This document shows, in pieces, positions 18,303 through 41,517 of a stretch of 64,000 bases of DNA. The notes under the pieces were generated by a model. That model did no database searches. It was not told the origin of the DNA and worked only from the letters and a program-made list of their open reading frames with translations. The translations under genes were made by a program, and so were the position numbers. The stretch spans positions 930,001 to 994,000 of the forward strand of contig JANHCV010000013.1 in the NCBI GenBank assembly GCA_025594325.1. The letters are read 5' to 3'. This stretch comes from Blastocladiella emersonii ATCC 22665 (Eukaryota > Fungi > Blastocladiomycota). The number at the start of each line of letters is the position of its first letter. The first letter of the stretch is position 1.

Positions 18303-18540
18303 AACGTGATCACCCTGTTACTTCACTCGGTACTTCGAGACGAAAGACAGCGACATGAACGACGCGTCACGCGTGCGACAAACAATAAGATGGTTTGGCA
18401 ACGCGTTGATGAGCCCCCGCGACCCAAAAATTTGTCGCCTTGCAAGGGTCTGCAACAGAAGCTAGAGAACTCACCCGCGCATGACTTGACGCATTTATCA
18501 TATATTCCATTCCGCTCCAGAGGCATGAGCGCCGGAATAA

Positions 18541-18752
18541 TCACTTGCGCGAGTGGTCGCCCGGCTTGCTGTTGGACGACGACCCGGTTTTCTTGGCCTG
18601 CTGCCTCTGCGGCGCCTGCATTGGCGACCTGGCGTTGGCCTGCTCCTGCGCTTTGGCTTGCTGGTCCGCTTCGGCCTGCTTGGCTTGATGGGCTCTGAGG
18701 GCGCGCAAACGCGCAGCGGAGGACGCAAAGATTGTAAGAAAGCCAAGCAAGG
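18541..18752 (-). pseudogene. 3' part of the Ty3-derived paralogue interrupted by the virus (5' part at 41081-41517)
   Basis: Joining the two flanks over one CAAGG gives an uninterrupted frame ...EFLADGDGVAL|LGFLTIFASS...QAKQAEADQQAKAQ..., similar to the tail of 15739-16518. Confidence 0.7.
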
Positions 18753-18778
18753 TGTCGTATCCCTTAAGGGATACGACA
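18753..18778. repeat. perfect 26-bp terminal palindrome TGTCGTATCCCTTAAGGGATACGACA
   Basis: TGTCGTATCCCTT is the exact reverse complement of AAGGGATACGACA; the same palindrome is at 41055-41080. Confidence 0.98.
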
Positions 18779-19256
18779 TGGGCTGACCCACTACCACTCG
18801 GGCTGACCAATTGCTTACCCCGAGCAGTCGGCGGGCAGTCACTTGGGCTAACCACGTGAGACCCAGTTGCTTACCCCGGGTGGTTAATAATATGTCGTAT
18901 GCCATATGTCGCATTCCCTTAGGGAACACGACACGCGGGCGGAGGCCGAAGGCCGGAGGGAGAGGGGTGGCGGGCGGGTCACGTGGATCACGTGCAGATG
19001 AACGGCGCGTGGACCCGATCTGCGAGTCGATCTGCGAGTCGATCTGCGAGTCGATCTGCGGGCAAGTCCCCGAGCCCGTCCCTGACCAACCGCTCGGGCT
19101 GACCATTGCTTACCCCGGGTGGTGGGCGGGGGGCGGCGAGCGAAGCGAGACAAAGAGCAGCGCAGCTGCGGCTACCCACTGTGCGGATCCCTGGTCTGGT
19201 CCCTGAGCACAGCTGAGAGTCCATCTGTGAGCAGTCAACGATCAGTCTGTGAGCCA

Positions 19257-19619
19257 GTCCCTGACCACCTGCCGCAAGCAACAGCTATGAACCTATCACC
19301 GCGCCGCATCCCCTTGTCCATCATTTTGCCCCATGGTGTATAAGTACATAGACGGTTTTGATGGACAAGGGGATGTGCCACGGTGATAGGTCTCTGGTTT
19401 GGGAGTGAAGGGAGAGAGCGAATAGCTGCGAGCTGTCTGAGAGTTGATCTGTGGAAGTCCGAGAGCTGTCCCTGACCACCTGCCGCGAGCAACAGCTATG
19501 AACCTATCACCGCGCCGCATCCCCTTGTCCATCATTTTGCCCCATGGTGTATAAGTACATAGACGGTTTTGATGGACAAGGGGATGTGCCACGGTGATAG
19601 GTCTCTGGTTTGGGAGTGA
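19257..19619. repeat. 211-bp-period direct repeat inside the TIR, each copy containing a 99-nt imperfect hairpin
   Basis: CCTATCACCG-N5-CATCCCCTTGTCCATC...GATGGACAAGGGGATG-N5-CGGTGATAGG at 19292-19390 and 19503-19601; mirrored in the right TIR. Confidence 0.9.
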
Positions 19620-20229
19620 GAGAGAAGGGCGAACAGCAGCGAACAGCAGTTGACTCGTTTACGGAACAGGTCGGGGAGCAGGTCATGGACACAGGCGGTC
19701 GTGGGGTGTCTTAGAGCTTGTCGTCGTCCAGGTTCAGCGTAAAGGTCGGGGACTGCTGCGGGGTGGTTGTCCAGGTGTCTGTCCATGGACAGGTCAGTGG
19801 ACACTTGTCCAGCTTGCCAGTGAGCTGTGTGGCTGGTGAACTGACCAACTGTGTGGCTGGTGAACTGACCAACGCGTGGCTGGGGAATTAGCGCTATCCC
19901 TTGCCCTATAAGAACCCCCCACCGCCCCCCTCCCCAGACCTGCTCTCCACCACCCACAACAGAAGCCATGACACAGATTCACTGCCTCAAGCCCCTGCTG
20001 AGCGCGTATAGGCCATCTTGCTGCAATGAGCCCAACGCACTCACAGGACTTTTGGTATGGGTATCATGGCCAACGTTGTGGGTGGTCAAAGTGTACGGCA
20101 CAAGACGTACAGGGCTATCTGCTGTGCACGGCAATAGACTCGGTTGCTTGTGTCAGGACATGGAGCGCTGCGCGGACTTGCTACCCGTGCAGTTGCACCA
20201 TGGACCTTTCTTCCTTTATCCTGTTGGCG

Positions 20230-21414: not shown

Positions 21415-22161
21415 TCAGATGAACGCAAGCTCGATGTAGAAGGGTTGCCCCAGGAAGTCAACAGAGCGCAGGTTCTCGTCCACCACGTCAACGTCAATGG
21501 AGTCTATCAGCTGCGGTGTGCCTCGCGCGTCAAAGCGAAAGTAGTTGCTCATGTGTGGCCGGTGCTCGAACCAGCTCCCAAACGGCTGTGTGACATGGAT
21601 ACTGCACAGCACACCATTGTCCTGCGGGTACGCCAAGAACATGTTGTCCGCAAGGCAGCTGCCCAGGTTGCGCGAGTACACATGCAGCAGGTTGATGGGA
21701 GAGATGTTCACCAGAGACATCCCGTACTGGACCTTGCTGTAGCCGTAGCTGCCGACAAAGCCCATGTGCGTGTTCAGCGCAGCGGCCCCTGTCCCAACAG
21801 TGAAGTCGCAGGTGTCATTGGCAATGCGCATCTTCTGTGTGGTGGAGTCAACCTGCACGTCCCATGTGCCCTGCCACAGAAGACTTGACGGCGCGTTGTT
21901 GAGCAGGCTCTTGAGCGTTGACGTGAACGTCTCAACTGTGTAGTTGCCATCAGGGACAGTGATGGTCCCTGGGAAGGTCACACTGCCACGGCTCTGTGTC
22001 AGGTACACCTTGTTGGCCTTGGAGTTGACCACGTGCCAGCTGTTACAGAGGTACGCCAAGTTGACCTTGACGCCGCTCACAGACACGGCCCGCGGGAGGT
22101 ACAGCACACCGTTCTTGAGGTCGCGGCTGCAGATGGTCAGTGTCTTGTAGGAGCCAGTCAT
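21415..22161 (-). CDS. minor capsid (penton-like) protein
   Basis: 248 aa with LTICSRD, NSWHVVN, ITVPDGNYT and IDVDVVDENLRSVDFLG motifs typical of Polinton/PLV minor capsids; adjacent to MCP. Confidence 0.8.
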   Translation of the reverse strand: MTGSYKTLTICSRDLKNGVLYLPRAVSVSGVKVNLAYLCNSWHVVNSKANKVYLTQSRGSVTFPGTITVPDGNYTVETFTSTLKSLLNNAPSSLLWQGTWDVQVDSTTQKMRIANDTCDFTVGTGAAALNTHMGFVGSYGYSKVQYGMSLVNISPINLLHVYSRNLGSCLADNMFLAYPQDNGVLCSIHVTQPFGSWFEHRPHMSNYFRFDARGTPQLIDSIDVDVVDENLRSVDFLGQPFYIELAFI

Positions 22162-22488: not shown

Positions 22489-23709
22489 TTACTTGTAGAG
22501 GTTGACCTCGCCGGTTGGGAGGAACTTGTACACAATGTCAACACCAACAAAGGCGTCAACACGCTGGTTTGGGACAGTGTTTGAGGTGAGGATGATCTGC
22601 ATGTCCACGGCCTGGCTCTTGCAAGACTTGTCTCCACTGACAATGGTACGGGACAACTCAAGGTTGTGGCCAATGCAGAAGGTCCCCTCAGCTGGCACAT
22701 TGTACTTGTCCACTGACATGCCTGCACCAATGACATGGCCATGGAAGGCGTTGGACAGCTCTACAAAGGCCTCTGAAGCGTAGTCGTCACAGCAGACAGG
22801 CTTCTGGGGGAAGAGACGGCCACTAATGCTGAACTGGTATGTTGCAATGGTCTTGGCACGGAGGAACGAGTCCTTGGCATTGTCATTGAGCACTGCGTTG
22901 TTGCAGAACAACACCAGCACGTCCTTTTGTGACGCACTGCAGTCAGAGACGTTGAGCATAGAGTTGGGCACCGAGTAGTTGAGGGAGTGGTGGTTGTACG
23001 TTGTGCCGTAGAGCTTGAGACCCTGCTTCTTGAAGGCAGCGTCCATGACGGCGATCTGCTGGTCATTGAGCTTGATCAGGTCAGACACGATGCACACGTC
23101 CTTGACACTGTAGCTTGGGATGGCATTGTTCTTGACCACACAGGCATCTGCGCCAGGAGCCAGGGTGAACTTGACATGGATACCACCAAGGTACTTCATG
23201 GGCAGATGCTTCTGGTTGGACAGCAGTGCAGACTTGATGGGCAGCATGTACCGGTGAAGTCCAGATGACACAGCAAAGCGGTCAGCCCCAGTGGCAAAGT
23301 AACCCTGGGCCACGCCAAGGCATGAGTCCTTGAGGTGCTGTGGGACAGTCACGTCAGCCTCAATGCGCTGACGCAGGTTGAAGTAGGGAAGCTCTTCAAG
23401 CAGGGCTCCACCCGCGCTGTAGACTTGCACACGGTCAATGATGCTGAAGATGCCATCACAGAAGGCGACGTTGGCGTCTGCAGTCTTGGCACTGAACTGC
23501 AGGAACGTGCAGTGGGTGTCCATCATGTCATTGCGCGGGGGCAGGAGGACACTGATAGTGTTGCCAGGTGCAGACTCAGGGCCGCCCTGTGCAGTGAACT
23601 GGACAGTCTGACGCTCGGCATACACAGACTCCTTGGGCAGGTTAAACGTCATCTCTGGCGGCAGAGTCTTTGACAGGACCTGGGAGAACTGGGCATTGGT
23701 GGAAGACAT
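22489..23709 (-). CDS. major capsid protein (double jelly-roll, Polinton-like virus type)
   Basis: 406 aa, intact. ISVLLPPRNDMMD..CTFLQF, FSIIDRVQVYSAGGALLEEL..FN, YQFSISGRLFPQKP and FCIGHNLE match the PLV MCP pattern; clustered with minor capsid and ATPase. Confidence 0.88.
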   Translation of the reverse strand: MSSTNAQFSQVLSKTLPPEMTFNLPKESVYAERQTVQFTAQGGPESAPGNTISVLLPPRNDMMDTHCTFLQFSAKTADANVAFCDGIFSIIDRVQVYSAGGALLEELPYFNLRQRIEADVTVPQHLKDSCLGVAQGYFATGADRFAVSSGLHRYMLPIKSALLSNQKHLPMKYLGGIHVKFTLAPGADACVVKNNAIPSYSVKDVCIVSDLIKLNDQQIAVMDAAFKKQGLKLYGTTYNHHSLNYSVPNSMLNVSDCSASQKDVLVLFCNNAVLNDNAKDSFLRAKTIATYQFSISGRLFPQKPVCCDDYASEAFVELSNAFHGHVIGAGMSVDKYNVPAEGTFCIGHNLELSRTIVSGDKSCKSQAVDMQIILTSNTVPNQRVDAFVGVDIVYKFLPTGEVNLYK

Positions 23710-24312
23710 GGCGTGTGTTACTGAAGCACAAGAAAAAAAGTCGCTGCGTCACTTAGTCCTTGATGATCCACTCACTGAAGCTGTCTACCAGCCTGTACTT
23801 GGGACTGTTCTGGTTGTTGACACCAAGGAAGCGTTGCTTGGTGTTGCCCTCTGAGCGGGTGTCAAAGAGCTGCTCAATGATCACCTCAAACTCCTTGAGC
23901 AAGAACTGCGACCCGATCTCCTTGTGCAGTGTCTTGACCTCTGTCTTGTCGTAGAGGGGGTACACGACGCTGTAGCTGCAGTTGATGCGCAGTGTCTTGG
24001 GCAGAGCACACCAGCGCTGCATGCCAATGATGCAGCTGATCTTGAGGTGTTGCAAGTTGCACAGGAAGTTGGTCAGCGTCTTGTGGGACAGCAGCTTGAG
24101 GCCCAGCACGTCGTCAATGATCAGCAGCTGGTCCTGCAGTGCCTTCTTGCCCTGGTCTTCAAAGGTCTTGGTCAGGTCTTTGTGCATCTTGAGCAGCGTG
24201 GGGATGAACAGCTCTGGGTCCGTGACAATGCACGATGGCTTCACCTTGAGCCGGTTTGGGTTGTGCTCCTGTGGATCAAGTACATTGTGCTGCTTCTTGG
24301 GTGGTCGCAGGA

Positions 24313-24486
24313 TGTAAGGTGCCGAGGGGGAGGGTCTTGTGCCACGAGGAATGACTAGCCGGATAATGAAGGATTGTATCACGAATGACAAGAGAGAGGG
24401 AGAGCGAGGGCAACGCTCGGCTTATGAGGGACTGCGCCACCAGCCCGCGCCACCAGCCCAAGCCGTTGGATCACTGAACCGTGACA
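24313..24486 (-). repeat. 3' LTR
   Basis: Direct repeat of 29460-29633 with 3 differences, all CpG transitions. Confidence 0.97.
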
Positions 24487-24506
24487 CTATCTCCCCTTCC
24501 CCCTCC
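24487..24506 (-). promoter_or_regulatory. polypurine tract
   Basis: GGAGGGGGAAGGGGAGATAG on the element strand, immediately 5' of the 3' LTR. Confidence 0.85.
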
Positions 24507-27500
24507 GCGGGTCGGGTTTTGACGGGTTCTGCGCGTGGAACTCGGCGAGCAGCTCGAGGTGCTTGAGGTTCGCGTACGGCTCCCAGGTGTTGTCGTCCTC
24601 GGGGCAGCCGTGCCACTTGAGCAGGTACTCGACGCTGCGGCCGACCTTGCGCGCGTCGCGGATCGCCTCGACTGTCCACTCCTCGTGCCCGTTGACGGCG
24701 TACGGCGTTGGCGGCGGCAGCGCGCGGCCCGGGAACGCCTCCTCGTCGTGCTCGTCGATCGGCTTGATGAGCGAGACGTGGAACACGGGATGGACGCGCG
24801 CCATGGTCGGCGGCAGCTCAAGCTCGACGGCCGATTTCCGGATGAGGCGCACGATCTTGAGCGGCTCCGTGTACTTGGGCCCGAGCTTGGCCTTGGGCAC
24901 GTTGACGCGCAGGTTCTTGGTGCTCAGCAGCACCATGTCGCCGACCTTGTAGTCGGGGCCCTCGCGGCGGCGGCGGTCAGCGTGCTTCTTGTACAGCTCC
25001 TTGGCGCGCTCGACCTTCTCGCGCAGCTTGCCCTGGACGTCGGCAATGCGCTTGGCCAGCGCGGCGGCTGACGGGACCCGATCCGACCGAACTGGCGCGG
25101 CCGAGAGCCGCTGGTCAAACGCGTAGTTGGCCTTGAACGGCGACATGCCCGTTGACTCGTTGACCGTGTTGTTGATGGCCATCTCGGCGTACCGCAGCAG
25201 CTCGGCCCAGTTTGACTGGTCCTCGTTGGCGAACATGCGCAGGTACACCTCGAGGGTCTGGTTCATGCGCTTGGTCTGCCCGTCGGTCTGCGGGTGGTAC
25301 GCCGTCAAGAGCTTGGCCTTGATCTCAAGCGACTTGCACATGGCCGACCAGAACCGCGACGTGGACTGCGACCCGCGGTCCGAGACGATGTCGTCGGGCA
25401 GCCCGTGCGGCCGCACCACGTGCTCAATGAAGGCGTCGGCGGTCGTGGCGGCCGTTGGGAGCGCGGCGAGCGGGATGAAGTGCGTCATCTTGGAGAACCG
25501 ATCGACGACGACCATGATGCAGGTGTGACCCTTGCTGCGCGGCAGGTCCGTGATGAAGTCCATGGAGATCGACGACCATGGCCGCGGCGGCGTGGGCAGC
25601 GGCTGCAGCTCGCCGTCAGGCCGGTGGCGCGGCACCTTGGCCCGCGCGCAGGTGAGGCACGACTTGACAAACCGCTCGATCACCTTGCGCATCCCGGGCC
25701 ACCAGTACGAGCGCGACACCTTCTCGATGGTGCGCTGGACGCCGAAATGACCGGCTACACGCGTCGCGTGCGCCTCCTTGATCACCCGGGTGCGCGCGAC
25801 GCCCAACGGTACGTACAGCCGGTCGTCTCGCCAAACGAAGCCGTCGAGGTCCATGGTGAGCGACGGGTGCTTGCCCGGGTTCCGCTGCATCGACTGCGCG
25901 AGCTCGTCCTCCGCCAGGCCGTCCCGAATCGCGGCGAGCACGTCGTCGCCCTGCGTGCCCGCGACGAGCGGCGCGCTGGCCGCGGCCGTGGCGGCCACCG
26001 TGAGCGCCGACGCGGGAACGACAGCGCGGCCGAGCATCGGGTTGTCAAACAGCTCGTAGTCGGCGCGGCGCGACAGCGCGTCGGCGCGCCCGTTGATTGC
26101 GCCGGGCCGGTACGTGAACCGGAACGAAAACCGCTCAAGGAACAGTGCCCACCGCGCGTGCCGCTGCGACTCGACCGTCATGGTGCGAAAGTGCTCAAGG
26201 TTCTTGTGGTCCGTGTACACCTCGACCGGGTGCTGCGCGCCCTCAAGGTGGTGGCGCCAGATCTCGAACGCGACCTTGATGGCGAGCAGCTCCTTATCCA
26301 AGATGGGATAATTCAGCTCCGCCGCCTTGAGCGCGCGCGAGTGGAACGCGACCGGCCGCAGCGTGCCCTCGTTGTCGACCTGCGACAGGACGCACCCAAT
26401 GGCGAAGTTGGACGCGTCGGCCTCGACAATGAACTGTTTTGAGGGGTCGGGGTGCGCGAGGAACTGGTCGGACGCGAACCGCGTCTTGATGGCCGCAAAG
26501 GCCGCCGCCTCGGTGTCGCCCCACCGCCACGGCGTGTCCTTCTGCGTAAGACGGGTGAGCGGGATGGTCAGTTCCGAGAACTCGGGGATGAAGCGGCGGT
26601 AGTAGTTGGCGAGGCTCAGGAACGCCTGCACCTCCTTGACCGTCCGTGGCGCGGGCCACTCGGTCACGGCGCGGACCTTGGCCGGGTCCATCTCGACGCC
26701 CTCGGTGGTCAGGATGTGGCCGAGGTACTCGACGCGCGTCACGTCGAATTCGCACTTCTCGAGCTTGACGTACAGCTTGTTGTCGGCGAGCCGCTGCAGC
26801 ACCTCCTTGACGAGCGCCGTGTGCTCTTCGGGGTCCTCGCTGAAGATGAGGATGTCGTCCAGGTACACGAGAACGCCGCGGCGGTCGAGCAGGTCGCGGA
26901 ACACGTCGTTGACAAACGCCTGGAACGCGGCCGGCGCGTTGGTCAGCCCGAACGGCATCACCATCCATTCATAATGTCCGTAGCGCGTGCGGAACGCCGT
27001 CTTCCACTCGTTGCCCTCGCGGATGCGGACCAGGTTGTACGCGCCGCGCAGGTCGAACTTGGTGAAGATGCGCGCGCCCTGCACTTGGTTCATGAGCTCC
27101 GCGATGAGCGGCAGCGCGTAGCGGTTCTTGACCGTCAGCGCGTTGAGGCGGCGGTAGTCCACACACATGCGGCGCGACCCGTCCTTCTTGGGCACGAACA
27201 TGATCGGCGCGCCGGCTGGCGACCGCGATGGGCGGATGAAGCCGCGCGCGAGGTTCTCGTCGATGGTCTTGCGCAGCTCCTCGAGTTCGGGCTGCGACAG
27301 GGCGTAGACGGGCAGGAACGGCACCTTGGCGCCCTCGACGAGCTCGATCTCGCAGTCGTACGGTCGGTGCGGCGGGAGCGCGGACGCCGCGGCGGCATCG
27401 AAGACGTGCGCCCACTTGAGGTACTTGGCGGGCAGCACGCGCTTCGGCGCCGCGTCATCTGGCGCCTCGGGCGGGCCGTGTGCCTCGTCCCACGCGAGCG

Positions 27501-28320
27501 GGTCGAGGTCGACGCGCGGTGCGACCGTGGCCACCGTGACGCGCTGGGCGGGCGGGCACCCGCAGCGACCAGTGCACGCGCCGTCAATCGCGACCGTGGC
27601 CGAGCGCGGATCCGGCTTCGCGCCGTTCGCGACCATCCATTCGAGTCCCATGATCACCGGAAACGCGGGAGAGTCGACGACGAGGAAGCGCGCGACCGAG
27701 CAATGAAGGCACGGAATGTCGATGGCGCGACCCGCGTCTCCCACCACGCGCTTCTGCTTGGACGCGTCGCCGGGAGGCACGACGCCGTCCGCGAACACGG
27801 TTTGGGATCCCGCGACCGCCGCGTGCAGGAATTCGGGCGACGTGACGGACACGGCCGCGTGCACGTAATGCGAGATGTACTGGCGCTGGCCCGGCGCGGA
27901 ACCGACGACACCGCGGAGGTCGATGCGACGCGCTAGGCGCTTTGGCACGAGCCCGGCCTGCTCGGCCACCCTGCGGCTGATCAGGTTAACCGGCGCGCCC
28001 GTGTCGAGCATCATGAACGTCGGGATCGGCGCCGTGCGGAGCCCTGGATGCGCGAGGAGCCCGCCGAGGTGCAGGTGGTCCTGCGCCATCTCTAGACGCA
28101 CAAGTGCACCAAAGTACGCAGCAACAGATTTTCCATTAGTCTTCTTATCATTCATGTTTTGTTTCTTCTTTTTGTTCATTTTTTTCTTCTTGTCGGCGGG
28201 CACCGACATCTTATCCGCGGCGGCGGCCGCCGTGGCCATCGCCGTTGTACCACCCAAATCCGCAGGTTTTGGCTTCGAGGACGTCGCGGCCTGCTCCGCT
28301 ACGCCCGACTGGCGTTTCCC
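24487..28320 (-). CDS. pol: Pol polyprotein (PR-RT-RNase H-IN-chromodomain), -1 frame relative to gag
   Basis: MLDTGA, YLDD, ADASNFAIG, H..H..C..C zinc finger, SMDFITD/SDRG, and C-terminal chromodomain WTVEAIRD...YLLKWHGCPEDDNTWEP. The integrase catalytic Glu is mutated (GQTKRMN). Confidence 0.95.
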   Translation of the reverse strand, partial: GKRQSGVAEQAATSSKPKPADLGGTTAMATAAAAADKMSVPADKKKKMNKKKKQNMNDKKTNGKSVAAYFGALVRLEMAQDHLHLGGLLAHPGLRTAPIPTFMMLDTGAPVNLISRRVAEQAGLVPKRLARRIDLRGVVGSAPGQRQYISHYVHAAVSVTSPEFLHAAVAGSQTVFADGVVPPGDASKQKRVVGDAGRAIDIPCLHCSVARFLVVDSPAFPVIMGLEWMVANGAKPDPRSATVAIDGACTGRCGCPPAQRVTVATVAPRVDLDPLAWDEAHGPPEAPDDAAPKRVLPAKYLKWAHVFDAAAASALPPHRPYDCEIELVEGAKVPFLPVYALSQPELEELRKTIDENLARGFIRPSRSPAGAPIMFVPKKDGSRRMCVDYRRLNALTVKNRYALPLIAELMNQVQGARIFTKFDLRGAYNLVRIREGNEWKTAFRTRYGHYEWMVMPFGLTNAPAAFQAFVNDVFRDLLDRRGVLVYLDDILIFSEDPEEHTALVKEVLQRLADNKLYVKLEKCEFDVTRVEYLGHILTTEGVEMDPAKVRAVTEWPAPRTVKEVQAFLSLANYYRRFIPEFSELTIPLTRLTQKDTPWRWGDTEAAAFAAIKTRFASDQFLAHPDPSKQFIVEADASNFAIGCVLSQVDNEGTLRPVAFHSRALKAAELNYPILDKELLAIKVAFEIWRHHLEGAQHPVEVYTDHKNLEHFRTMTVESQRHARWALFLERFSFRFTYRPGAINGRADALSRRADYELFDNPMLGRAVVPASALTVAATAAASAPLVAGTQGDDVLAAIRDGLAEDELAQSMQRNPGKHPSLTMDLDGFVWRDDRLYVPLGVARTRVIKEAHATRVAGHFGVQRTIEKVSRSYWWPGMRKVIERFVKSCLTCARAKVPRHRPDGELQPLPTPPRPWSSISMDFITDLPRSKGHTCIMVVVDRFSKMTHFIPLAALPTAATTADAFIEHVVRPHGLPDDIVSDRGSQSTSRFWSAMCKSLEIKAKLLTAYHPQTDGQTKRMNQTLEVYLRMFANEDQSNWAELLRYAEMAINNTVNESTGMSPFKANYAFDQRLSAAPVRSDRVPSAAALAKRIADVQGKLREKVERAKELYKKHADRRRREGPDYKVGDMVLLSTKNLRVNVPKAKLGPKYTEPLKIVRLIRKSAVELELPPTMARVHPVFHVSLIKPIDEHDEEAFPGRALPPPTPYAVNGHEEWTVEAIRDARKVGRSVEYLLKWHGCPEDDNTWEPYANLKHLELLAEFHAQNPSKPDPRRGKGR

Positions 28321-29404
28321 GACGACGAGCGCGGGGGCGACGGGCAATCAGCCGCCTTGTGGCCGTAGCCCTTGCAGTTGTAGCACTTGATGTCAGTGAG
28401 GGCGCGGCCCTGGTGCGCCGCCGCCCGCTGCCGAATCGCGCCAACGTCCATGGCGTCCGGGTCCGGGACGAGCTCGGCCGCGACGCCCATCGCCCCGCCC
28501 TCGTGCACCAGGAAGTGCTCGACCATCTTGTCAAAACGGTAGCCCTTGCGCAGCGAGGCGAAGGCCACGTCCGCGGCCAGCGGCGAGTTGCCGGCCGTGA
28601 CCACCAGGTAGAACTGCATCGCCAGCTCGCTGAGCGCGCGGTAGCCTGCACCGGACGCGGTCTGGCGGAACTTGGAGACGAAATCGCGCGCCGGCATGGC
28701 GCCGCGCACGTACTTGAGGTTCTTGAGCTCGTGCGCGTACTCGGTCTCCGACTTCTCGGCCGGCTGCGTTGACTTGACGAGGGAGATGTAGGCGTTGAAC
28801 GAGCCGTAGTCCTCAAACTTGGACCCGGCCATCGCCAGCTCCACGGCCTCGAGCACCTTGCCCGTTAGCTTGCCGTGGAAGTGCGCAATCTTGAACTTCT
28901 CCGGGACGTTGAACGTGAGCTGGAGGATGCTCTCGTACTGCGTGATGGCGCTCTTGACCTTGAAGTTGACGCCGTCAACCGAATTCATGCGCATCAGCGC
29001 GTGCATCGCGGCCGGCGTGAAGCCATCAACGCCCACGCCCGGCCCGCGCGCGCTGCTGACCTGGATGCTGTCGAGCTCGCCCTGCAGGATACCGTTGAGC
29101 GGCTGGCTCTGCTGCGTCTGCCGCAGCTCGACCTCGAGCGCATACGCGCGGCGCTCCGCCGTCTCGGCGCGCCGCTCGGCCGCGACCGCCGTCTCGGCGC
29201 GCCGCTCGGCCGCGACCGCGCGGGCCTCGGTCGACACGCCCAGTTGCCAGTAGTCGCTGGCGACGTTGAGCGCGAGGAAGACGAGCTTGGCTTTGTCCTC
29301 GTACGGCATGACCAGGTCGCGCCACGGCGCGAGCTGGTACTCGGGGACAATGGCCGCAACGTCAAACGTCGCCAGCTTTTCGAGGAACTGTGCCGGCGTT
29401 ATCA
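28299..29404 (-). CDS. gag: Gag with CCHC zinc knuckle
   Basis: CYNCKGYGHKAADC near the C-terminus; the first ATG downstream of the 5' LTR is MITPAQF. Confidence 0.85.
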
Positions 29405-29448
29405 TTTTGCCGTCGTGGAAGAAATCACCGCTCGGAGGGGGTTTTACG

Positions 29449-29457
29449 GTGATACAA
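29449..29457 (-). promoter_or_regulatory. candidate self-priming primer-binding site
   Basis: TTGTATCAC lies 2 nt downstream of the 5' LTR and is perfectly complementary to GTGATACAA inside the LTR (29521-29529); no TGG tRNA-type PBS. Confidence 0.65.
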
Positions 29458-29459
29458 AG

Positions 29460-29633
29460 TGTAAGGTGCCGAGGGGGAGGGTCTTGTGCCACAAGGAATG
29501 ACTAGCCGGATAATGAAGGATTGTATCACGAATGACAAGAGAGAGGGAGAGCGAGGGCAACGCTCGGCTTATGAGGGACTGCGCCACCAGCCCGCGCCAC
29601 CAGCCCGAGCCGTCGGATCACTGAACCGTGACA
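29460..29633 (-). repeat. 5' LTR
   Basis: 174 bp, TGTCAC...CTTACA on the element strand. Confidence 0.97.
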
Positions 29634-29904
29634 CAGGATCGCCTGTGAGGCAATGTACTCGTACTTGTCGTCAGCGTGGAAGGTGGGGTTGAAGACCCAG
29701 ATGTTGTCAAAGCGTCCCTTGTAGAACTGCGGGAAGCACACAAGGTTGGCGATCAGTGTTGACTTGCCCTGACCCTTGGCGCCAATGACGTTCATGGTGA
29801 AGGGGTGCTTGGGGATGGGCGAAGGCTGGTTGTCATTGTTCCTGGTGAAGCCGTTGTCAATGGCCACAATGTCGTACATCTTACTGTAACCCAAGACAAA
29901 AGGT

Positions 29905-30159: not shown

Positions 30160-31623
30160 TCAGATGAGCTGCTCCAGGTTGCTGGTGTCCAGGACCTGTG
30201 GCTGTGCTGGCGGCTGCATCGTGTCCAGCTTGCTGCCCAGGTCCTGGAGTGTCTTGTTCACAGCAGCATTGGACTCTGTCTGTCCCTGGATGGCGCTCTG
30301 GACACCTGTTGCAAGCTGGCCAATGAGTCCCTGCTGGTTGGTCAGGGCAGTTGACATGCCGCTTGCAATCTCAGACACCAGTGCACGGTTCCCTGCATCA
30401 ATCTGTCGCACAAAGGCGTTGCGCTCTGCATGCAGTGTGTCCACCATGTTAGCTGCAAGGTTGGCAAAGGTCTCAAGTGCCAGTCCTTGGGCGTTCTTGG
30501 ACTGCTCAATCAGGGCCATGTACGCCTGGTACTGCATGACCTGACTGTTCGCAAACTGGCCAGCAATGACATCCAGCGCAGCCATCACGTTGGGGTCGCT
30601 GTTGTACTGCACCATGATCTGTGTACGCAGGTCATTGTTCTGCTGGTAGTAGTTCTGCTCGTACTGCATGATGTACTGCCGCATGTCGTAGTTCTGTGTG
30701 TTGTCCTGCTGGAAGCTGCTGTAGACGTATTGATTGAACTGCTGAAAGTTCTGGACAATGTCAACCTCCATGTCATCTGTCGTGGTCAGTGCCCGCTCTG
30801 GGTTGTAGACCTGGATGTCCTTGGAGCCTTCAATCATCTGAGACTCGTCCATGGTGGGATGTACGTGTGTGTCATTGTACACAGAGCTGCGCTGTGGAAG
30901 GTCCTGTCCGTAGCTGGGAGGGACAACAACCAGGTTGCGTGTGCCATCGTTGAGCCGGGGTGGAAGGTCATTGCCGCCGTTGTTGTCATTCTGAATCAAG
31001 TAACGTCCAGGGATCATGCCAGCGTACTCTGGGATGTCCTGGCCAACGTAGTCACCAGCGTCCACAGGGTACTCTTCAGGGACAACTGGGCGGACAGGTA
31101 CAGGCAAGAGATGGTCAGGCACACGCTGCCCTGCTGTCTCAAGCATCTCAGCAAGTTTGTCCAAGGTGTCCTGTGGCCTCTGTGAGCCTATGCCAGAGTC
31201 TTGTGTGCTTAGGACGTCTGGTGTGTCTGCGCCTGTGTCAGAGTCTGGCGTGCCTTCCTGTGCAACAGGAACACGTTGGATGCCACTGCTAACGCTTGTG
31301 CTTGCTTGTTTGATGGTGTCATAGACGTGCTGCATGACGCTCTCTGAGTCTTGCCCCATGATCTCTCCATTGTGTCTCAGGAACAGCATCCCTGATTGCT
31401 TGCCCTCAAAGTCGTCTGCATAGCTCTCTGGTGTGACAGCGTAGTCAAAGGCAAGGATGTACGGGACCCACACAGTGAGGAACTCCTTGGCTGTGGGGAA
31501 AGTGTACGCGCGTCCATCAATGGTGGCCTTGATCCTCTGGCCAGGCATGCGCTCTGCAGTGATATGACTGTTTGTCTTGGCTGCAACGTCTTCCAGTTGC
31601 TTGGTGATGGGTCTTTGTGTCAT
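30160..31623 (-). CDS. viral protein of unknown function, Q/N-rich with likely coiled coil (about 487 aa from MTQRP)
   Basis: Long ORF with viral codon usage; ATG at 31623 is preceded by TTATTTTCGCTTCATACAGTAACCACC. Confidence 0.75.
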   Translation of the reverse strand: MTQRPITKQLEDVAAKTNSHITAERMPGQRIKATIDGRAYTFPTAKEFLTVWVPYILAFDYAVTPESYADDFEGKQSGMLFLRHNGEIMGQDSESVMQHVYDTIKQASTSVSSGIQRVPVAQEGTPDSDTGADTPDVLSTQDSGIGSQRPQDTLDKLAEMLETAGQRVPDHLLPVPVRPVVPEEYPVDAGDYVGQDIPEYAGMIPGRYLIQNDNNGGNDLPPRLNDGTRNLVVVPPSYGQDLPQRSSVYNDTHVHPTMDESQMIEGSKDIQVYNPERALTTTDDMEVDIVQNFQQFNQYVYSSFQQDNTQNYDMRQYIMQYEQNYYQQNNDLRTQIMVQYNSDPNVMAALDVIAGQFANSQVMQYQAYMALIEQSKNAQGLALETFANLAANMVDTLHAERNAFVRQIDAGNRALVSEIASGMSTALTNQQGLIGQLATGVQSAIQGQTESNAAVNKTLQDLGSKLDTMQPPAQPQVLDTSNLEQLI

Positions 31624-31804: not shown

Positions 31805-32015
31805 GTTGTGCATTGCGCTTGGCATTGAGTGCCTTGTAGATGCGGATCTTGACGCGCTCTGCCCGTGCTGCCTCACTGTCAACGTGGACAAAGCGACTGG
31901 CCTTGCGGTCCCTCTTCTGTAGCCACTTGGCCTTGTCCTCGTCGCTCTTGTTGTACCAGTTGGATGGCACAGGGAAGGTCCCTGCAAGGTGTTCATGCCA
32001 CTCATCAAGGGACAT
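31743..32015 (-). CDS. possible small basic viral protein (90 aa)
   Basis: MSLDEWHEHL...KRNAQR looks coding, but its 3' end runs into the repeat array and the shared upstream motif is absent. Confidence 0.35.
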   Translation of the reverse strand: MSLDEWHEHLAGTFPVPSNWYNKSDEDKAKWLQKRDRKASRFVHVDSEAARAERVKIRIYKALNAKRNAQRTKCTLDGTKFTTDRCKVYP

Positions 32016-32058
32016 GTCCTGGTACTCTGAGCAATTCATTTCTTGCACTAAGTTAAAC

Positions 32059-33999
32059 ATGGTCAAGAATATATTCAACGTGTCTACCAACGTGTCACCA
32101 ACAGTGTCGGCCACAGGTGTCTCAGACGTGTCCACGGCATATGTTGATGGTGCCATCAGTGCTGTCTATGCCACAGTTGGTGCACCTGTCGCTGGGCCTG
32201 GACTCAGCGTGTCAGGGACAACTGTCTCTGCCAAGGTCAATGACCAGACACTGGGTGTTGGTCCAAGCGGTCTCTATGTCAAGTCAATCAGTACGGCCCA
32301 GCTCCTGCCAGCCAGCGTCACAGCAGACAAGCTTGTGAGTGTCACAGCTGCACAGGTCACAGGTAAGCTTGTTGATGCACAGCTGGACACTGTGTCAGCA
32401 TCCAAGGTCACTGGTGTGCTCAGTGCGTCCAACCTTCCAGCGCTTGGGACAACGTCCATTGCAGATGGCTCTGTGACAGACGCCAAGGTTGCCTCAGTGT
32501 CCAGGTCCAAGCTGGTTCTGGGGACCGTCAACACAGCAGCTCTTGCAGACACCTCCATGACAGACGCCAAGGTTGTCTCAGTGTCTGGGTCCAAGCTGGT
32601 TGCAGGAAGTGTCTCAACACCTGCTCTTGCAGACGCCTCAGTGACAGATGCCAAGGTTGCGTCTGTGTCCGGGTCCAAGCTGGTTCCAGGGACTGTCAGC
32701 ACAGCAGCACTTGCAGACACCGCAATAACAGATGTCAAGGTTGCCTCAGTGTCTGGGTCCAAGCTGGTTCCAGGGACTGTCAGCACAGCTGCCCTTGCAG
32801 ACGCTGCTGTCACCAACGCCAAGCTGGCCACTGGTATAGACGGTGCAAAGCTCAACGTGTCATCTGTGGGAACAGCACACCTTGCAGCAGGGTCAGTCAC
32901 CGATGCCAAGGTCACAGATGTGTCTGCCACCAAGCTGACAGGGACGCTTGATCCTGCACGCATTGCAGACAGTTCACTGACCAATGCCAAGCTGGCCACT
33001 GGGATAGACGCTGCCAAGTTGTCTGGGACCATTGACCTTGCACGACTGCCTGACGTGTCCAGCAAGGTGTCAAGTGTCAACGGAGCCATTGTCACTGGGA
33101 CGCTCCCCCAGTCCACCCTTGGACTTGGCAGTGTCTTTACATTTGCCAGTACTGTGGACAGCACATCGACGTCCACTGGGGCAGTCACTGTGGCAGGTGG
33201 CCTTGGTGTGGGCAAGCAGCTCACTGTGCCAAACGTCCTTGTCCGGAACACAGTCAGTGCAAATGTGGTCTTTGACTCTGCTGCCAACACACTCACATAC
33301 ATTGACTTCAAGCAAGCAGGTGTCCTGAAGAGCAACCTGGCATGCACTGCACTGGGCACCATTGAGATCGCTTCAGCAACTAATGGTGGCGTGTCCTTGG
33401 CTGCAGGTGGAGGGAATGTTGTCATTGGCTCAGCGACGCTTGGCACAGAAAAGCTCCATGTCAAAGGCACTGGTCGCTTCACAGGGCAGCTCACCCTTGA
33501 CCTCGCTCCAGTGGCAGGCACCGATGCAGCAAACAAGGCATACGTTGACTCGCGGTCTGGCACAACCCGGTACATCGCTCAGGCCAAGCACCGCTCTACA
33601 AATGGAGTGACCACGGGCGGCAAGATCATTGGCGGCACAGCATCAACGGGCCCAGCCACCTTTGCATTCCAGTCCACGGCGGGTGCGTTCATGTCTGTGA
33701 TCAATGGATGCGTCAAACCCCCTGTCAGTGGCTACTACCTTGTCCATGCAAAGGGCTATTACGCAAACGGCACGCTCCCTGGAGCCCACACTGTGAACTT
33801 TGCGCTGTACAATATGACGGACATGATTGCAGTGTCACTTGTCACCGGGTGCCGCGCTGAAGGCAACGTCCAGTTCCTTCAGTTCTCGAGCATTGAGTAC
33901 CTTGACGCGGCCAAGAGCTACTCTTTCATCTGGATCCCATCGGTCGCAGTTGCCAACGACTGCCAGGTCATCATTCAAAGCCACTGGACCCTGCTCTAA
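32059..33999 (+). CDS. fibre / tail-fibre-like protein (646 aa)
   Basis: Repeated ~25-aa units (ALADTSVTDAKVASVSGSKLVPGTV), phage-fibre-like EKLHVKGTGRF and PVAGTDAANKAYVD, and a C-terminal beta-rich head (PPVSGYYLV). Confidence 0.7.
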   Translation: MVKNIFNVSTNVSPTVSATGVSDVSTAYVDGAISAVYATVGAPVAGPGLSVSGTTVSAKVNDQTLGVGPSGLYVKSISTAQLLPASVTADKLVSVTAAQVTGKLVDAQLDTVSASKVTGVLSASNLPALGTTSIADGSVTDAKVASVSRSKLVLGTVNTAALADTSMTDAKVVSVSGSKLVAGSVSTPALADASVTDAKVASVSGSKLVPGTVSTAALADTAITDVKVASVSGSKLVPGTVSTAALADAAVTNAKLATGIDGAKLNVSSVGTAHLAAGSVTDAKVTDVSATKLTGTLDPARIADSSLTNAKLATGIDAAKLSGTIDLARLPDVSSKVSSVNGAIVTGTLPQSTLGLGSVFTFASTVDSTSTSTGAVTVAGGLGVGKQLTVPNVLVRNTVSANVVFDSAANTLTYIDFKQAGVLKSNLACTALGTIEIASATNGGVSLAAGGGNVVIGSATLGTEKLHVKGTGRFTGQLTLDLAPVAGTDAANKAYVDSRSGTTRYIAQAKHRSTNGVTTGGKIIGGTASTGPATFAFQSTAGAFMSVINGCVKPPVSGYYLVHAKGYYANGTLPGAHTVNFALYNMTDMIAVSLVTGCRAEGNVQFLQFSSIEYLDAAKSYSFIWIPSVAVANDCQVIIQSHWTLL

Positions 34000-35108
34000 A
34001 GCCCGCGGTCCCACTTTTCTTGGACTCGGACTAGGACGCGCCTGACCCGGGTCGAGGGCTCCCTTGGCGTGACCGGGGTGCGCGCAACAGGGAGCCTTGG
34101 AAGACTTGGGGCCATGCGTGGCCTTGTCGGCGGGTCCTGGGTCACTGTGACTGGCTGGACGTCGCTTCGAGGGTAGAAGCCCTTGAGGCCTTGGACCTTG
34201 TAGCTCGGATTGCTCACACCCAACCCCTTGCGCACAACCTGGACCTGGCTCACAGTTGTCAACCAGACCAGCTTCCCCTTGGCCTCCATGGCAGTCTTGT
34301 ACGGCTCGCGGACTCGGACCTGGGTCCCTACCTTCAACAACGCGCTCAGAGGGTCGCCCTCGGGCTTGCCCTTGGCAGCTCGGATCTCCTTGAGCTTTTG
34401 CTTGGCCGTTTCGCGGGGCATGTCATGGAACTCGTTGGGCGCCCTGCCCGTGGCCCTCGACTTGCTGCTGTTGATCACAGATTCAATGGTCTCGAGGTGC
34501 TTGGGCCAGTCGTTGTTGCCCGGGATGGACAGCCACGGTGTGAGCATCCGGCAGATGGTCCCGTTCATACGCTCAACAACACCTTGACCGTATGGCACTC
34601 CTGCCTTGCCCTTGATGTGCTTGGCCTCAGTCCCGGCCTCTATGCCAAAGAACTCGGTCCCATTGTCCGTCTGGATCGTGGCAGGTGCAAGGCTGTGCTT
34701 GGCGACCACGCTGGACCATGCTTCCCGCGTCTTGTCCTTGGTCTTGATGGGTTGGAGGTAGACGCGGCGGCTCGCCAGGTCGACACACGTGAGAATGTAA
34801 CAGAAGCCCTTGTACGTACCATTTTCGCCCATGTCAATGAGGTCGAGCTGAAAGTTGCGGCCAGGACTTGTTGAGTTGATGCTTCGAATGTCTCGGCGCT
34901 TCTGAGGTGCGCGTTTGTACTGCTGCCACACAGACTGTTTGCCGAGCCATCTCTCAAGCTGGGCGTGGTAGATGTGCTTCCCTGTGTTCTCTCTGGACAC
35001 AATGTCAAAGAGCCGACGGATGCCAACACCTACGTGGCCATGCTTGTAGTACAAGTCTGTCAGGAATGCTTGCTGTGCGTCTGTGAGCGGCTCTTTGTGG
35101 GCATACAT
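33996..35108 (-). CDS. Maverick/Polinton-type retroviral-like (rve) integrase, 370 aa
   Basis: Intact DDE triad: FQLDLID, IQTDNGTEF, QGVVERMNGTI. N-terminal LTDLYYKHG..GIRRL and C-terminal LKVGTQVRV as in Maverick c-integrases. Confidence 0.93.
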   Translation of the reverse strand: MYAHKEPLTDAQQAFLTDLYYKHGHVGVGIRRLFDIVSRENTGKHIYHAQLERWLGKQSVWQQYKRAPQKRRDIRSINSTSPGRNFQLDLIDMGENGTYKGFCYILTCVDLASRRVYLQPIKTKDKTREAWSSVVAKHSLAPATIQTDNGTEFFGIEAGTEAKHIKGKAGVPYGQGVVERMNGTICRMLTPWLSIPGNNDWPKHLETIESVINSSKSRATGRAPNEFHDMPRETAKQKLKEIRAAKGKPEGDPLSALLKVGTQVRVREPYKTAMEAKGKLVWLTTVSQVQVVRKGLGVSNPSYKVQGLKGFYPRSDVQPVTVTQDPPTRPRMAPSLPRLPVARTPVTPREPSTRVRRVLVRVQEKWDRGL

Positions 35109-35136: not shown

Positions 35137-36273
35137 TTACTGAGGCGTCATGTAGTAGGTCAGGGCAACAGGGACGCTGTGACCCATCTCGTGTGCGCGG
35201 TCAGCAATAGCTTGCTGCGCGGCAAAGTTCTCGCTGGTGGAGATACGGCGGATCACTGCCACGCCGCCATCCTCAAAGCCGACCGTCTTTGCAGCCCGAC
35301 TAATCGACGTACACCAGGTGCTGCTAACCCTCTTGCGGAGCGTGGTGTCCTTGAGCTCCTCGAGGGTGTAGTTGTTGAAGACAAAGTCATGACCTTCGGC
35401 GAGACGCTGGGCGAGGATACGCTTGAGAGCGGCGGCGACCTTGGGCTCACTAACTGTGTGCGAGAAGTTGTAGCCACAGCCCTCTGTCTTGACAATGACA
35501 TCGCCGGCCAGAATCTGGGTCTCTGGGTCGTAGTACGGGTACCCAGTGGTTGGCTTTGTGGTCAGGAACGCAGGGTCGGAGCGCACCACACTCACAACTT
35601 GGAGGTACAGACGCAGGAGCCCTGTGCCCAAGCCCTTTGCATCAACAATAGCGGCGCAAATGGCGTCACGGCTTGGGAGCGCACCAGACTCGAGTTCCTT
35701 GCGCGCGTCGCAGAAGTCGGCAGCGTCCTGCTTCTTGGCCTCTGTGTACTTGGCCCCGAGTTCGGTCCACCCGTTCCAGGTGCAGTACTTGGCCAGGGCC
35801 TTGAGCGTCTCAACCTGCAGCCCCTGCTCGCCCTTGGACGCGCGGTACGCTGCCACAGCTTTGGACACGGCGTCAACGTCTTCAATGTCCATGCCCGACT
35901 TGGCAAAGGCACAGAGCACGCGGGATGTCTTGGCCTTGTCCGTGTTGCTCAGCTTGGCCAGTTCCCCGTGCTTGTTCTGAACACGCGCATTGACGCACGC
36001 CGCAATGGATTCCTCGGTCATCTGCGCGTACTTGACCTGGGGATCAGTGTCCATGGGTTTGCCAGACTCGTTGGCGGGGGTGTGATTGGAACTGTGATTG
36101 CAGTCACGTGACACTGCAGCCAGCGCGGCGAGGCTGGTCTCAATTCCCTTGAGCCGCTCATCAAAGGATGCCAGCAGCGGCTTGATACCATCGAGCACTT
36201 GGTGCACTACGTCGGCGGCAATGTGCTGAGCAACAACCTTGGACACCTGGGACACGAGCGCTTCGAGAGACAT
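35137..36273 (-). CDS. tyrosine recombinase-family protein (378 aa)
   Basis: C-terminal catalytic signature: VVRSD (R), VKTEG (K), AVIRRIS (R), AHEMGHSVPVALTYY (H, with Y eight and nine residues downstream). Confidence 0.75.
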   Translation of the reverse strand: MSLEALVSQVSKVVAQHIAADVVHQVLDGIKPLLASFDERLKGIETSLAALAAVSRDCNHSSNHTPANESGKPMDTDPQVKYAQMTEESIAACVNARVQNKHGELAKLSNTDKAKTSRVLCAFAKSGMDIEDVDAVSKAVAAYRASKGEQGLQVETLKALAKYCTWNGWTELGAKYTEAKKQDAADFCDARKELESGALPSRDAICAAIVDAKGLGTGLLRLYLQVVSVVRSDPAFLTTKPTTGYPYYDPETQILAGDVIVKTEGCGYNFSHTVSEPKVAAALKRILAQRLAEGHDFVFNNYTLEELKDTTLRKRVSSTWCTSISRAAKTVGFEDGGVAVIRRISTSENFAAQQAIADRAHEMGHSVPVALTYYMTPQ

Positions 36274-36857: not shown

Positions 36858-36871
36858 ACGCACCATGGACA

Positions 36872-37159: not shown

Positions 37160-40122
37160 ATGGTCTACAAGCTTGCAAGCACGTCCTTTGGTCTCCAGTG
37201 GTACTCGGGCAAGGACGGTGACGACAAGGACATGGGCCCTCAGCGCTACGTGCTGTCGACGCTCAAGGACAACAAGCTTGTGGTCAAGCGTCTGGTCAAC
37301 AAAGGCGTCAATCAAACGGCAAAGACAAGGAGGCCCACCACTTTGCCAAGGTCAAGCCCGAGAAGCTGGTGGAGATCCTCAACAGGAACCACTGCATCCA
37401 GGAGATGGTCCACCCGGACCGTCTGTCCAAGGTGTACTTTGACGTGGACTTTAACCGCGACTGTGGCGACGTGACGCTGGACGAGGTCAAAGCGGTGATC
37501 ATGGACCAGTTCCCCAGCGCTAATCTCCAGATCTGTGGCTACGAGACTGACCAGAAGAAGTCGTGGCACATTGTCCTCAGCAACTACACGGCTACATTCA
37601 AGGAGCTCGAGCTCGTCAAGCTGTTCTGCATGCAGTACTCTGCCCTTGGCTTTGACGCCAAGGTGTACACGGCGAACCGGTTCATGAAGTGCATCAACCA
37701 GTCCAAGCCCAAGAAGACGCCAGGCGTGTACATTGAAGGTTCACGCGAGGTGTCCAAGCACCTGATCCAGGTCAACTTTGACGACAACTGTGTGTCTGTG
37801 TCCACGCTGTCCTTTGACGCGTTGATGTCAGACAAGGCCAAGGCCGCCGTGGCCAAGGGTCGCCGTGTTGACTTTACCACGGACATTCCCGAGTTCAAGG
37901 ACGTCACCATTGACCCTGACTTCTTCTTCTACGACGCGGCGCCGCTGCAGATCCTGCACAACCTCCCAGTGAGCCCGGACAATGCGTTTAGCAACGACGT
38001 GACGTGGCGGATCATGACCTGGGCACTCCGCCGTGGTCTGACCTTTGCCAAGTTCTGGGCGTGGACATCACAGCAGGACGACTCGGTGCAGCGCATGCAC
38101 AAGTACCAGCAGCGGTGGGCCGAGATTGAGGGCAACAACAAGTACCAGGTCCGCAACGGGTTCATGGAGGGCATCTTCTACGCCCACTTCCCAAGCGCTC
38201 TCAAGTCCAAGGCCCTGAAGCTGTTCAACGCGTCTCTTTGTGTCCCGGCCACCAAAACCAGCCCTAACCAGTGGCTGACCTGCGACGACATCACGCCCGC
38301 CAAGTTCAACGTGCTGGCCACTGGCATGGGATCCAGCAAGACGGGTGCGGTGTGCTCGTACATTGCCAAGTTCCCCGACGCCCGTGTGGTCTGGATCACG
38401 CCGCGCATCACTCTGACCCACAACACGGAGGGTTGACTGGTAAAAGAAGGCCTCGGCTTTGTCAACTACCGCAATGTCAAGAACAAGAAGGCCATGGGCT
38501 CGCACAAGCGCCTTGTGATCTCGCCGTGCTCCCTGCACTACATCACAGAGCCCTACGACATGGTCGTGGTGGACAAGTCGGAGACCGTGCTGCAAATGTT
38601 CCTGGATGACAAGCTGCACACAACGACGGGCAAGAACAACCTTCTCGCCAACTTGCTCGCCTTCAAGACGCTGTGCGAGAATGGCCGTGGTATCTTCATG
38701 GACGCGTTTGTCACTAACCTGACCATGGACGTCCTGCGCTCCTTTGAGGTGGCACCAACCATTCCCAACCAGCTCTGTGGTATGGTCGAGTTCCGCAGTA
38801 AGATCGAGGTCATCAAGAACACGCTGCCCAACACCTTTAAACCGCGCAAGATGACGTACATTGCCAGTAAGCCGCACCTTGAGCTCAGCGCCGAGGACAT
38901 CATGGAGCGGAACATTATCGCCGACCTGCGCGCTGGCAAGAAGCTGTACGTGTTCATCCCCCGCAAGCACGACAACAACTCCATCTGGGCGGTGCAGAAG
39001 TTTGGCGAGTACCTTGAGAAGGTCATGGACTGGAAGATTGGCAACCAGATCAAGGTGTACCACAGCGGGCGCCCCAAACACGAGAACAAGGAACTCGAGA
39101 ACCCTGACACCGCGTGGGGCTTGGACAATGTCCGCGTGGTCATCTTGAACCTCAAGATCACTGTGGGCGTCAACTTCTCGACGGAGAAGGTCTTCCACAA
39201 GGTCTACGCGCGCTACGAGTCCTGGTTCTCTGCGCGCAACTTCATCCAAGGCGTGTTCCGTGTCCGCCACCCCATCGACAACAAGATTGTGTTCATGACG
39301 TGCAAGGGCAATCGCAGCAAGTACCTCAAGCGCACCAAGGTCATCAACGTGGCCCCTGTCGGCGAGCTGCACCAGGCGATTGTCAAGAATGCGATGCTTG
39401 AGCGCGAGATGGCCGCTGTGTCCGCTCGCTACAAGGTCTTTGACTCGTTCCGCAAGCTTGCAGGGGTTGTCATTGACAACTGCCCCGACTACTACTACGA
39501 AGTCGACCCCAAGGTCAAGGTCGTGCTCGAGTCTGGCTGGTCCTTTGAGTGGAAGAACATTGAGCCGGCCAAGGACGACACAATGCAGGCGTACAGTGAC
39601 AAGGTCCTTGACGCGCCTGACTGGAAGACGTGGCTGTCGATCCGCAAGTCCTTCTTCATGTCGACGTTCAAGGGGCTGAGCGAGAAGCAGATGAGCGTCA
39701 TCTGGGACAACAACTCGGAGGACTTTATGGAGACGATCAAGCACTTTTACACCAAGGACACGGACCACGTCCTGCACACCCTCCTCGCGCACAACAAGAT
39801 GGATCTCCGCACAGCCACCAAGTTCAACGTCCAGGCTGTGGTCCCTGCTGCGTTTGGCAACGACATCAAGCGCTGGTACAAGCAGCTGACCCGCAAGGCC
39901 TGTGGCAACGCGACTCTACTCTCCAGCCTGCTCAACAAATACTTTGGCAAGAAGATTGTCCGAGTCGACCCCAAGCAGCGTCAAGTGATGATCGACTACA
40001 AGCCCTACCCCAACTTGTCATGGACAGACAACTACGAGCTCTTCAAGATGTACATCGACTGGACAACCACCCCGCAGCAGTCCCTGACCTTTACGCTGAA
40101 CCTGGACGACGACAAGCTCTAA
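37160..40122 (+). pseudogene. PrimPol (AEP)-SF2 helicase fusion, disrupted by a frameshift near 37310 and an in-frame TGA at 38434-38436
   Basis: AEP motifs YFDVD, KKSWH and FDAKVY..NRFMK; helicase motifs TGMGSSKT, WITPRITL, VVDKSE, TVGVNF and FIQGVFRVR (origin-binding-protein-like). ORFs 37369 and 38494 are in the same frame. Confidence 0.85.
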
Positions 40123-41080: not shown

Positions 41081-41517
41081 CAAGGCAACACCATCGCCGT
41101 CCGCCAAAAATTCTAGTTTTTCGCCCGGAAAATGCAAGACTGACGATTGCTTAGACTCGTTAAACGCAAGGACGTTGAGGATAATGCGGCGCATGTCATC
41201 CCAGGTACTCTCGTCGTTGGAGTCCACATGCAGGCCTTCATCGGAAGCGGGAGTTGAAAGCGTCAGCATGAAGTTTCGCCGGCACGAGAGGTTGGCGGCA
41301 CCCAACGAGGTCCCGTCGACCATCATGTGCCCCGCCAGGATCCCTCCTGCTCTTGGTCAAAAATTGAGAAGGACACACCTGCAAGTGGTTTGCTGGAAGT
41401 CTTTTCATTCGCTTGCATGATGTGGTCGAGTTTTGCAGGCAGGATCGGAAGGCGAGGCGGGCGAACGAGGCGAAGAACGTCCTCGCTCTGAACTGCCTTG
41501 CGCCACACCGTGATCAC
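41081..41517 (-). pseudogene. 5' part of the Ty3-derived paralogue interrupted by the virus
   Basis: Shares ITVWRKA/MQANEK with the start of 16083-18302. DDMRRIIL..L..NE..QS...PGE..EF..DGDG aligns with DDPVRAAIL..L..DE..QS...PGE..DF..DADG. Confidence 0.65.

Follow-up and report, generated by a model that had tools for sequence, protein, structure and literature searches.

Perfect 26-bp palindromes at the ends of a Polinton-like viral element of Blastocladiella emersonii: a likely hairpin origin and a possible opening step by the integrase

Palindromes at the outer ends of terminal inverted repeats (TIRs) were described in a July 2026 preprint on Halocafeteria seosinensis, where they adjoin the target-site duplication in virophages as well as in Polinton-like viruses (PLVs) (10.64898/2026.07.28.741278). 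As reported there, they are present in every complete member of one PLV subtype and four virophage subtypes, occur preferentially with replicases other than pPolB and with particular RVE integrases, and hairpin priming was proposed for them. Since, according to the same text, the PLVs never combine an RVE integrase with a tyrosine recombinase, the palindrome-bearing PLV subtype 4 appears to be free of recombinase. The element of B. emersonii described here resembles those of Halocafeteria in having the palindrome at the TIR end beside the duplication, a non-pPolB replicase and an RVE integrase. The Halocafeteria host is a bicosoecid and the subtype illustrated in the preprint has 52 nt, while here the host is a fungus and the palindrome is 26 nt long; furthermore, the two enzymes occur here together in a PLV, a combination which the preprint gives only for virophages. 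The model presented there is fold-back priming after excision, and a closed hairpin opened by the integrase is not part of it.

Several other systems share some of these features. The mid-GC EMALE virophages of Cafeteria burkhardae likewise have no pPolB, a long primase-helicase, an rve integrase together with a tyrosine recombinase, and TIRs, and their duplications are of 3-5 bp; they differ in their virophage capsid and protease, and neither 'palindrome' nor 'hairpin' appears anywhere in the main text of that paper (PMC8547959). Mavericks/Polintons are similar in size (15-20 kb), long TIRs, rve integrase, A32 ATPase, capsid genes and a 5-6-bp duplication (PMC8547959, PMC12220804). Unlike them, the present element gave no match to a pPolB or protease family, and its end is palindromic. 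In the protelomerase systems (phage N15 telRL/TelN, TelK, TelA and a phaeovirus) there is also a perfect palindrome with a 6-bp self-complementary centre and an enzyme of the tyrosine recombinase superfamily nearby (PMC3558466, PMC13236599), but here the site lies at the provirus ends, the predicted enzyme fold is nearer to XerA, Cre and Int, and integration would be the work of a DDE enzyme. At the 2-LTR junction of foamy virus an rve integrase cuts after CA in an uninterrupted palindromic duplex; in that case the CAs point inward and integration removes the palindrome, whereas here they point outward and it is retained (PMC1180852). A word search of PMC12220804 for 'palindrom' and 'hairpin' gave no occurrence in the text covered, and the searched text of two further papers held no such account, with one unrelated mention of a palindrome (10.1101/2022.07.28.501842) and one figure label (10.64898/2026.10.13.758929). 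Literature searches that covered few subscription journals returned no paper on Blastocladiella with Polintons, on Polinton-like viruses with a protelomerase, on integrase, hairpins and P nucleotides at palindromic transposon ends, or on Tlr elements with palindromes.

The window, that is the whole 64,000-nt stretch of DNA analysed, contains one such element (Table 1). When the flanks were compared at lengths 2 to 9, they matched at length 5 only. The element measures 22,328 bp from end to end, and 17,001 bp remain once a nested Ty3 retrotransposon is taken out. Removal of the element and of one copy of the duplication rebuilds an empty site with a 160-codon minus-strand frame, upstream of the pol frame of a neighbouring retrotransposon; this agrees with the borders and lends them modest support, the DNA being GC-rich. 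The insertion site of the virus lies within a second, degenerate Ty3-like element (15000-18752 and 41081-41600), of which 18178-18342 is partly repeated at 41381-41546. The surrounding host DNA contains two related ankyrin-type genes (11465-12901 and 62461-63768), which lie about 51 kb apart and are 70-72% identical over parts of their DNA. Further host genes are of the LRR type (47141-48811 and 51294-53007) and like those of class C GPCRs (54422-56623).

Table 1. Features of the element and its borders (positions in the window)
Feature	Position	Strand	Remarks
Target-site duplication CAAGG, left copy	18748..18752	+	
Left TIR	18753..19774	+	1,022 bp; differs from the right TIR only at 19748
Left terminal palindrome TG...CA	18753..18778	.	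centre between 18765 and 18766
Internal dyad related to the terminal palindrome	18907..18933	.	27 nt, two mismatches in this copy
Probable minor capsid (penton)	21415..22161	-	248 aa; assigned from size and position only
Major capsid protein, double-jelly-roll-like	22489..23709	-	
A32 packaging ATPase, C-terminal part	23753..24312	-	PF04665, E 8e-07, above cut-off
Nested Ty3/gypsy chromovirus	24313..29634	-	175-bp LTRs that differ by 3 mismatches; flanked by a separate 5-bp duplication (CAGGA); not viral
A32 ATPase, N-terminal part	29635..29879	-	Walker A motif
487-aa ORF	30160..31623	-	no recognised family
Repeat-rich, fibre-like protein	31840..33999	+	719 aa; PF09327, E 3e-04, below cut-off
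rve (DDE) integrase	33996..35108	-	370 aa; triad present
Tyrosine recombinase	35137..36273	-	R-K-x-R-H-Y site, HxxR His replaced
Probable primase fused to SF2-type helicase	37160..40122	+	apparent frameshift near 37330, stop at 38434-38436
Right TIR	40059..41080	-	1,022 bp
Right terminal palindrome	41055..41080	.	26 bp, perfect
Target-site duplication CAAGG, right copy	41081..41085	+	

The element is assigned to the Polinton-like viruses and not to the Mavericks. Of the features of a Polinton-like virus, an A32-type packaging ATPase, a size of 17.0 kb (range 14-40 kb), long TIRs, a duplication and a double-jelly-roll-like capsid were found. The capsid assignment is a lead from language-model features and not from alignment: a 94% identical paralog scored 0.97-0.98 to viral clusters, some of which include DJR-like, Capsid_N or Capsid_NCLDV members. 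The penton candidate gave no Pfam or PHROG match. The ATPase gene is split by the Ty3 insertion, and this copy of the virus is defective. The nested Ty3 itself is near-intact (gag, and pol with a chromodomain) and its insertion in the viral ATPase gene is another case of a retrotransposon in a Polinton-like virus. Three small intergenic tandem arrays were also seen in the virus, at 20218-20614, 31662-31804 and 36847-37046, with 8-/36-bp, 21/22-bp and 25-bp units, respectively.

Two statements of the earlier, sequence-only reading concern the enzymes, namely that an rve integrase is present and that PolB is absent. The former was borne out: PF00665 matched the integrase with an E of 6e-07, just under the cut-off, the D-D-E triad was found, and a 31% identical relative matched rve_3 above the cut-off. 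The latter held as well, as no PolB family, and likewise no protease, HUH nickase or RuvC-type family, was matched in the 88 frames of the element (at least 70-80 aa), a search in which Pfam also missed the capsid and which a very divergent PolB remnant could escape. The probable primase-helicase matched phrog_4913, 'replication' (E 1.7e-09), and a DEAD/DEAH helicase family (E 0.058). By eye, motifs were assigned in it which we take to be those of an AEP-like primase; the structure of the primase region, predicted without alignment, had a pLDDT of 36.6 and its fold search was uninformative. The tyrosine recombinase fold of the second enzyme is certain (model pLDDT 78.8). In the fold search TelA and TelK ranked below XerA, Cre and Int, and most of the nearest viral folds were those of giant-virus proteins whose annotations read 'uncharacterised', 'integrase' or 'tyrosine recombinase'. 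The His of the HxxR motif is replaced by Ala, Gln or Arg in all 25 aligned recombinases covering the position, at which TelA has Tyr and the classical enzymes His (PMC3558466).

A perfect 26-bp palindrome was claimed at both termini, ending exactly at the duplication, and it was found there without a mismatch, with CAAGG directly outside each copy. These two are the only exact copies in the window, and the terminal 26-mer occurred at no third place in it when up to 3 mismatches were allowed, nor in any of 100 shuffled sequences. The 13-bp arms form the longest perfect palindrome of the window, the maximum in 30 Markov simulations being 10 bp; the second longest, of 24 bp, lies in the host flank at 1136-1159. 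With DNA parameters the single strand is predicted to fold at -10.8 kcal/mol, with 11 bp in the stem and 4 nt in the loop, while in a TIR-TIR junction the palindrome would present 11-bp arms flanking a self-complementary 6-bp core. A second CA stands just inside the palindrome in the ordinary orientation, and its use by the integrase would lose the palindrome. Exact scans of metagenome and viral contigs for the palindrome gave no match. An assembly artefact was ruled out at the left junction, because short-read contigs of three runs (X1-X3) cross it without difference, and a host repair scar was ruled out by the finding of the same edge at many loci. Borders read as 28-bp ends with a 3-bp duplication were also rejected, as about half of the other ends are without the extra base.

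Other copies were sought in contigs from four runs (X1-X4), which are not independent since all come from one sample. A 79-base stretch of the left end was covered by 35, 19, 34 and 2 records in the four runs. Twenty-seven of these records run outward into foreign DNA, and 26 of them leave the element at 18749-18753 (7 in X1, 7 in X2, 11 in X3 and 1 in X4), while the 27th leaves at 18764, where the loose letters are those of a variant arm; none leaves at the tip of the palindrome. The outward flanks of the 26 records agree poorly with each other. In each run, one record may stem from the right end of the present copy itself. Thus the expectation that other copies would show the same outer edge with different flanks was confirmed for the left-end stretch, and the palindromic end is a fixed feature of a multicopy family: it is real, exact and family-wide. 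Several records have 1-2 differences within 18752-18798. No palindrome-less end was among the listed records, although such a copy would overlap the 79-base stretch by only 22 bases. Likewise, a strand-switching joint was not seen in the contigs, which is a weak test and no evidence either way, since a contig across such a junction would be longer by no more than a few letters. In three runs the contig depth rose 57- to 98-fold from the flank to the palindrome, a ratio that is not a copy number. In X3, 7 of 12 ends had C as their first base outside the element (p ~0.05), an excess too slight for a target preference to be retained. At the protein level, all seven recombinase matches (56-97% identity) and all seven capsid matches (79-94% identity) were B. 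emersonii proteins, and the family has at least 23 recombinase loci. None of the window's own three sequences had a letter-for-letter identical entry in the protein collection. Scans of viral contigs and metagenomes with the recombinase, capsid and integrase confirmed no relatives, and the integrase matched no phage record.

A look-alike of the terminal palindrome lies inside the left TIR, with its mirror copy at 40900-40926, so that a dyad stands 154 bp inside each TIR. It is imperfect in at least two haplotypes, while record 5 of run X1 has six substitutions, two of which turn it into a perfect 13+1+13 palindrome. It may be an old terminus or a second, putative binding site. The region 18780-19125 and its mirror also contain iterated motifs (a 10-mer three times, a 9-mer three times and a 12-bp unit four times), which are candidate origin iterons. 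Further inside, at 19257-19642 and 40191-40576, each TIR has a 211-bp tandem duplication, each unit of which holds a 33-bp inverted repeat with its halves 35 nt apart.

Some form of hairpin in the life cycle is probable, and the hairpin origin of the palindrome is likely. Because of the TG...CA ends, the 5-bp duplication and the D-D-E enzyme, the junctions are attributed to the integrase. Without PolB the genome would need another way to finish its ends, and fold-back supplies one. Our best explanation, to which we give a little less than an even chance, is that the palindrome is an unfolded hairpin telomere, opened by the integrase of the element at the terminal CA while being joined to the host. 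The free genome of about 17 kb would be linear with each end folded at the palindrome centre, and such ends would solve end replication for the primase-helicase and a host polymerase without a terminal protein. Copying round the tip would yield TIR-palindrome-TIR junctions. The rve integrase would then nick after the outer CA, either on the closed hairpin or on both strands of the junction. Both routes would end in an identical nicked hairpin, so that the integrase might serve as resolvase too. The 13-bp arm would be the attachment site of the integrase, with the genome held through the other strand, and the two 3'-OH ends would attack host DNA 5 bp apart. Host gap repair would fill the 5 nt and copy through the fold-back, leaving a whole palindrome at each end. 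For comparison, retroviral att sites are of 12-20 bp, and foamy virus (PFV) integrase cuts after CA within continuous duplex DNA (PMC1180852). The chemistry of hairpin opening is self-consistent and, with this partial precedent, plausible. Against it, retroviral processing and the PFV junction cut have the opposite geometry to the one proposed, in which the short arm would be the donor and the genome the flank, and the look-alike motif lies away from the end. No rve integrase is known to take a short arm as donor and the genome as flank. The direct opening of the hairpin by the integrase is held tentatively.

The sequence-only reading had claimed hairpin ends opened by the integrase; the constant edge, the rve integrase and the missing PolB match speak for it, while the specific opening step is possible but is not told apart from its rivals by the letters of the provirus, which fit other routes too. 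Transfer of a hairpin to an open end that then undergoes ordinary 3' processing, or a recombinase or binding site on a genome without hairpins, would leave the same integrated sequence. The rather unlikely course that the palindrome folds back as a primer, with a nick at or just inside its inner edge and an extension giving an open duplex end with the full palindrome, as in parvoviruses, predicts an identical provirus. The integrase would then insert the open end by ordinary chemistry, blunt or after trimming a dinucleotide behind CA, that is, in its normal geometry and with a longer att site, and the same was proposed for ends of this type in the Halocafeteria preprint (10.64898/2026.07.28.741278). 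It needs a nick with a free 3'-OH, for which no HUH or Rep family was found in the 88 frames, and the tyrosine recombinase would leave a blocked 3' end (PMC3558466). The integrase itself could nick at the inner CA step, but this would predict some palindrome-less insertions, and none was seen in what is a weak test. A reading without any hairpin, in which the genome is open and linear and the palindrome is a two-fold protein-binding site (an origin for the primase-helicase or a site for a dimeric integrase), is distinctly unlikely. The internal look-alike is the main point for it, being a related dyad inside each TIR among iterated short motifs and perfect in one haplotype; the terminal copy, however, is perfect and without a spacer, whereas mismatches occur in the internal copy in two haplotypes or more. 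Such a site would also leave end replication without PolB or terminal protein unexplained, and the same arrangement is reported at 52 nt in unrelated non-pPolB elements (10.64898/2026.07.28.741278).

That the palindrome is the core site of the tyrosine recombinase of the element is improbable; it can coexist with a hairpin opened by the integrase. As a symmetric site is at once a direct and an inverted repeat, recombination between the ends would release the element as a circle, with a single palindrome staying behind between the duplicated bases, and the recombinase might also cut a TIR-TIR junction and seal hairpins in the manner of a protelomerase. The enzyme is conserved in the family: for at least 19 of the 23 named loci a capsid-cluster gene is no more than 6 locus tags away, and R, K, R, H and Y are kept in 21 of 26 aligned recombinases. 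Protelomerases cut palindromes 6 bp apart (PMC3558466), a switch from circle to hairpin was proposed for phaeoviruses (PMC13236599), and a 2026 preprint describes as elusive the connection of AEP replicases with tyrosine recombinases (10.64898/2026.10.13.758929). The structure model, on the other hand, is closer to XerA (Z 10.5, rmsd 13.0, 241 aligned) than to TelA and TelK (Z 5.1-5.5, rmsd 4.3-6.6, 165-204 aligned), and no telomere-resolvase Pfam family was matched. Pairs of RVE integrase and recombinase are usually read as host and giant-virus integrases (10.64898/2026.07.28.741278, PMC8547959), PLV subtype 4 of Halocafeteria appears, from the wording of the preprint, to bear palindromes without a recombinase (10.64898/2026.07.28.741278), and in phaeoviruses, a eukaryotic precedent for hairpins, the site lies internally and is served by a true telomere resolvase (PMC13236599). 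The combined cycle is given only a small chance. In it the recombinase, as a protelomerase that arose independently, would cut the terminal palindromes, free the provirus and seal the hairpins, and the rve integrase would open them again to integrate, with a 13-bp stem as donor and the whole genome as flank. If true, it would explain excision, end replication and why two 'integrases' are kept.

Palindromic ends are not new in kind, the Halocafeteria preprint being earlier (10.64898/2026.07.28.741278). What is new here is the fungal host and, as proposals, the opening of hairpins by the integrase and a conserved recombinase that could seal them. Since the end is short and sharp, is present in tens of copies in several subfamilies, is accompanied by candidate enzymes and occurs in a culturable fungus, the hairpin models are directly testable. 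If the integrase does open hairpins, this would be a new reaction geometry for rve integrases. The finding extends palindromic ends from a bicosoecid to the fungi, and it bears on how the ends of PolB-less Polinton-like viruses are copied and on how any of these viruses leave the chromosome.
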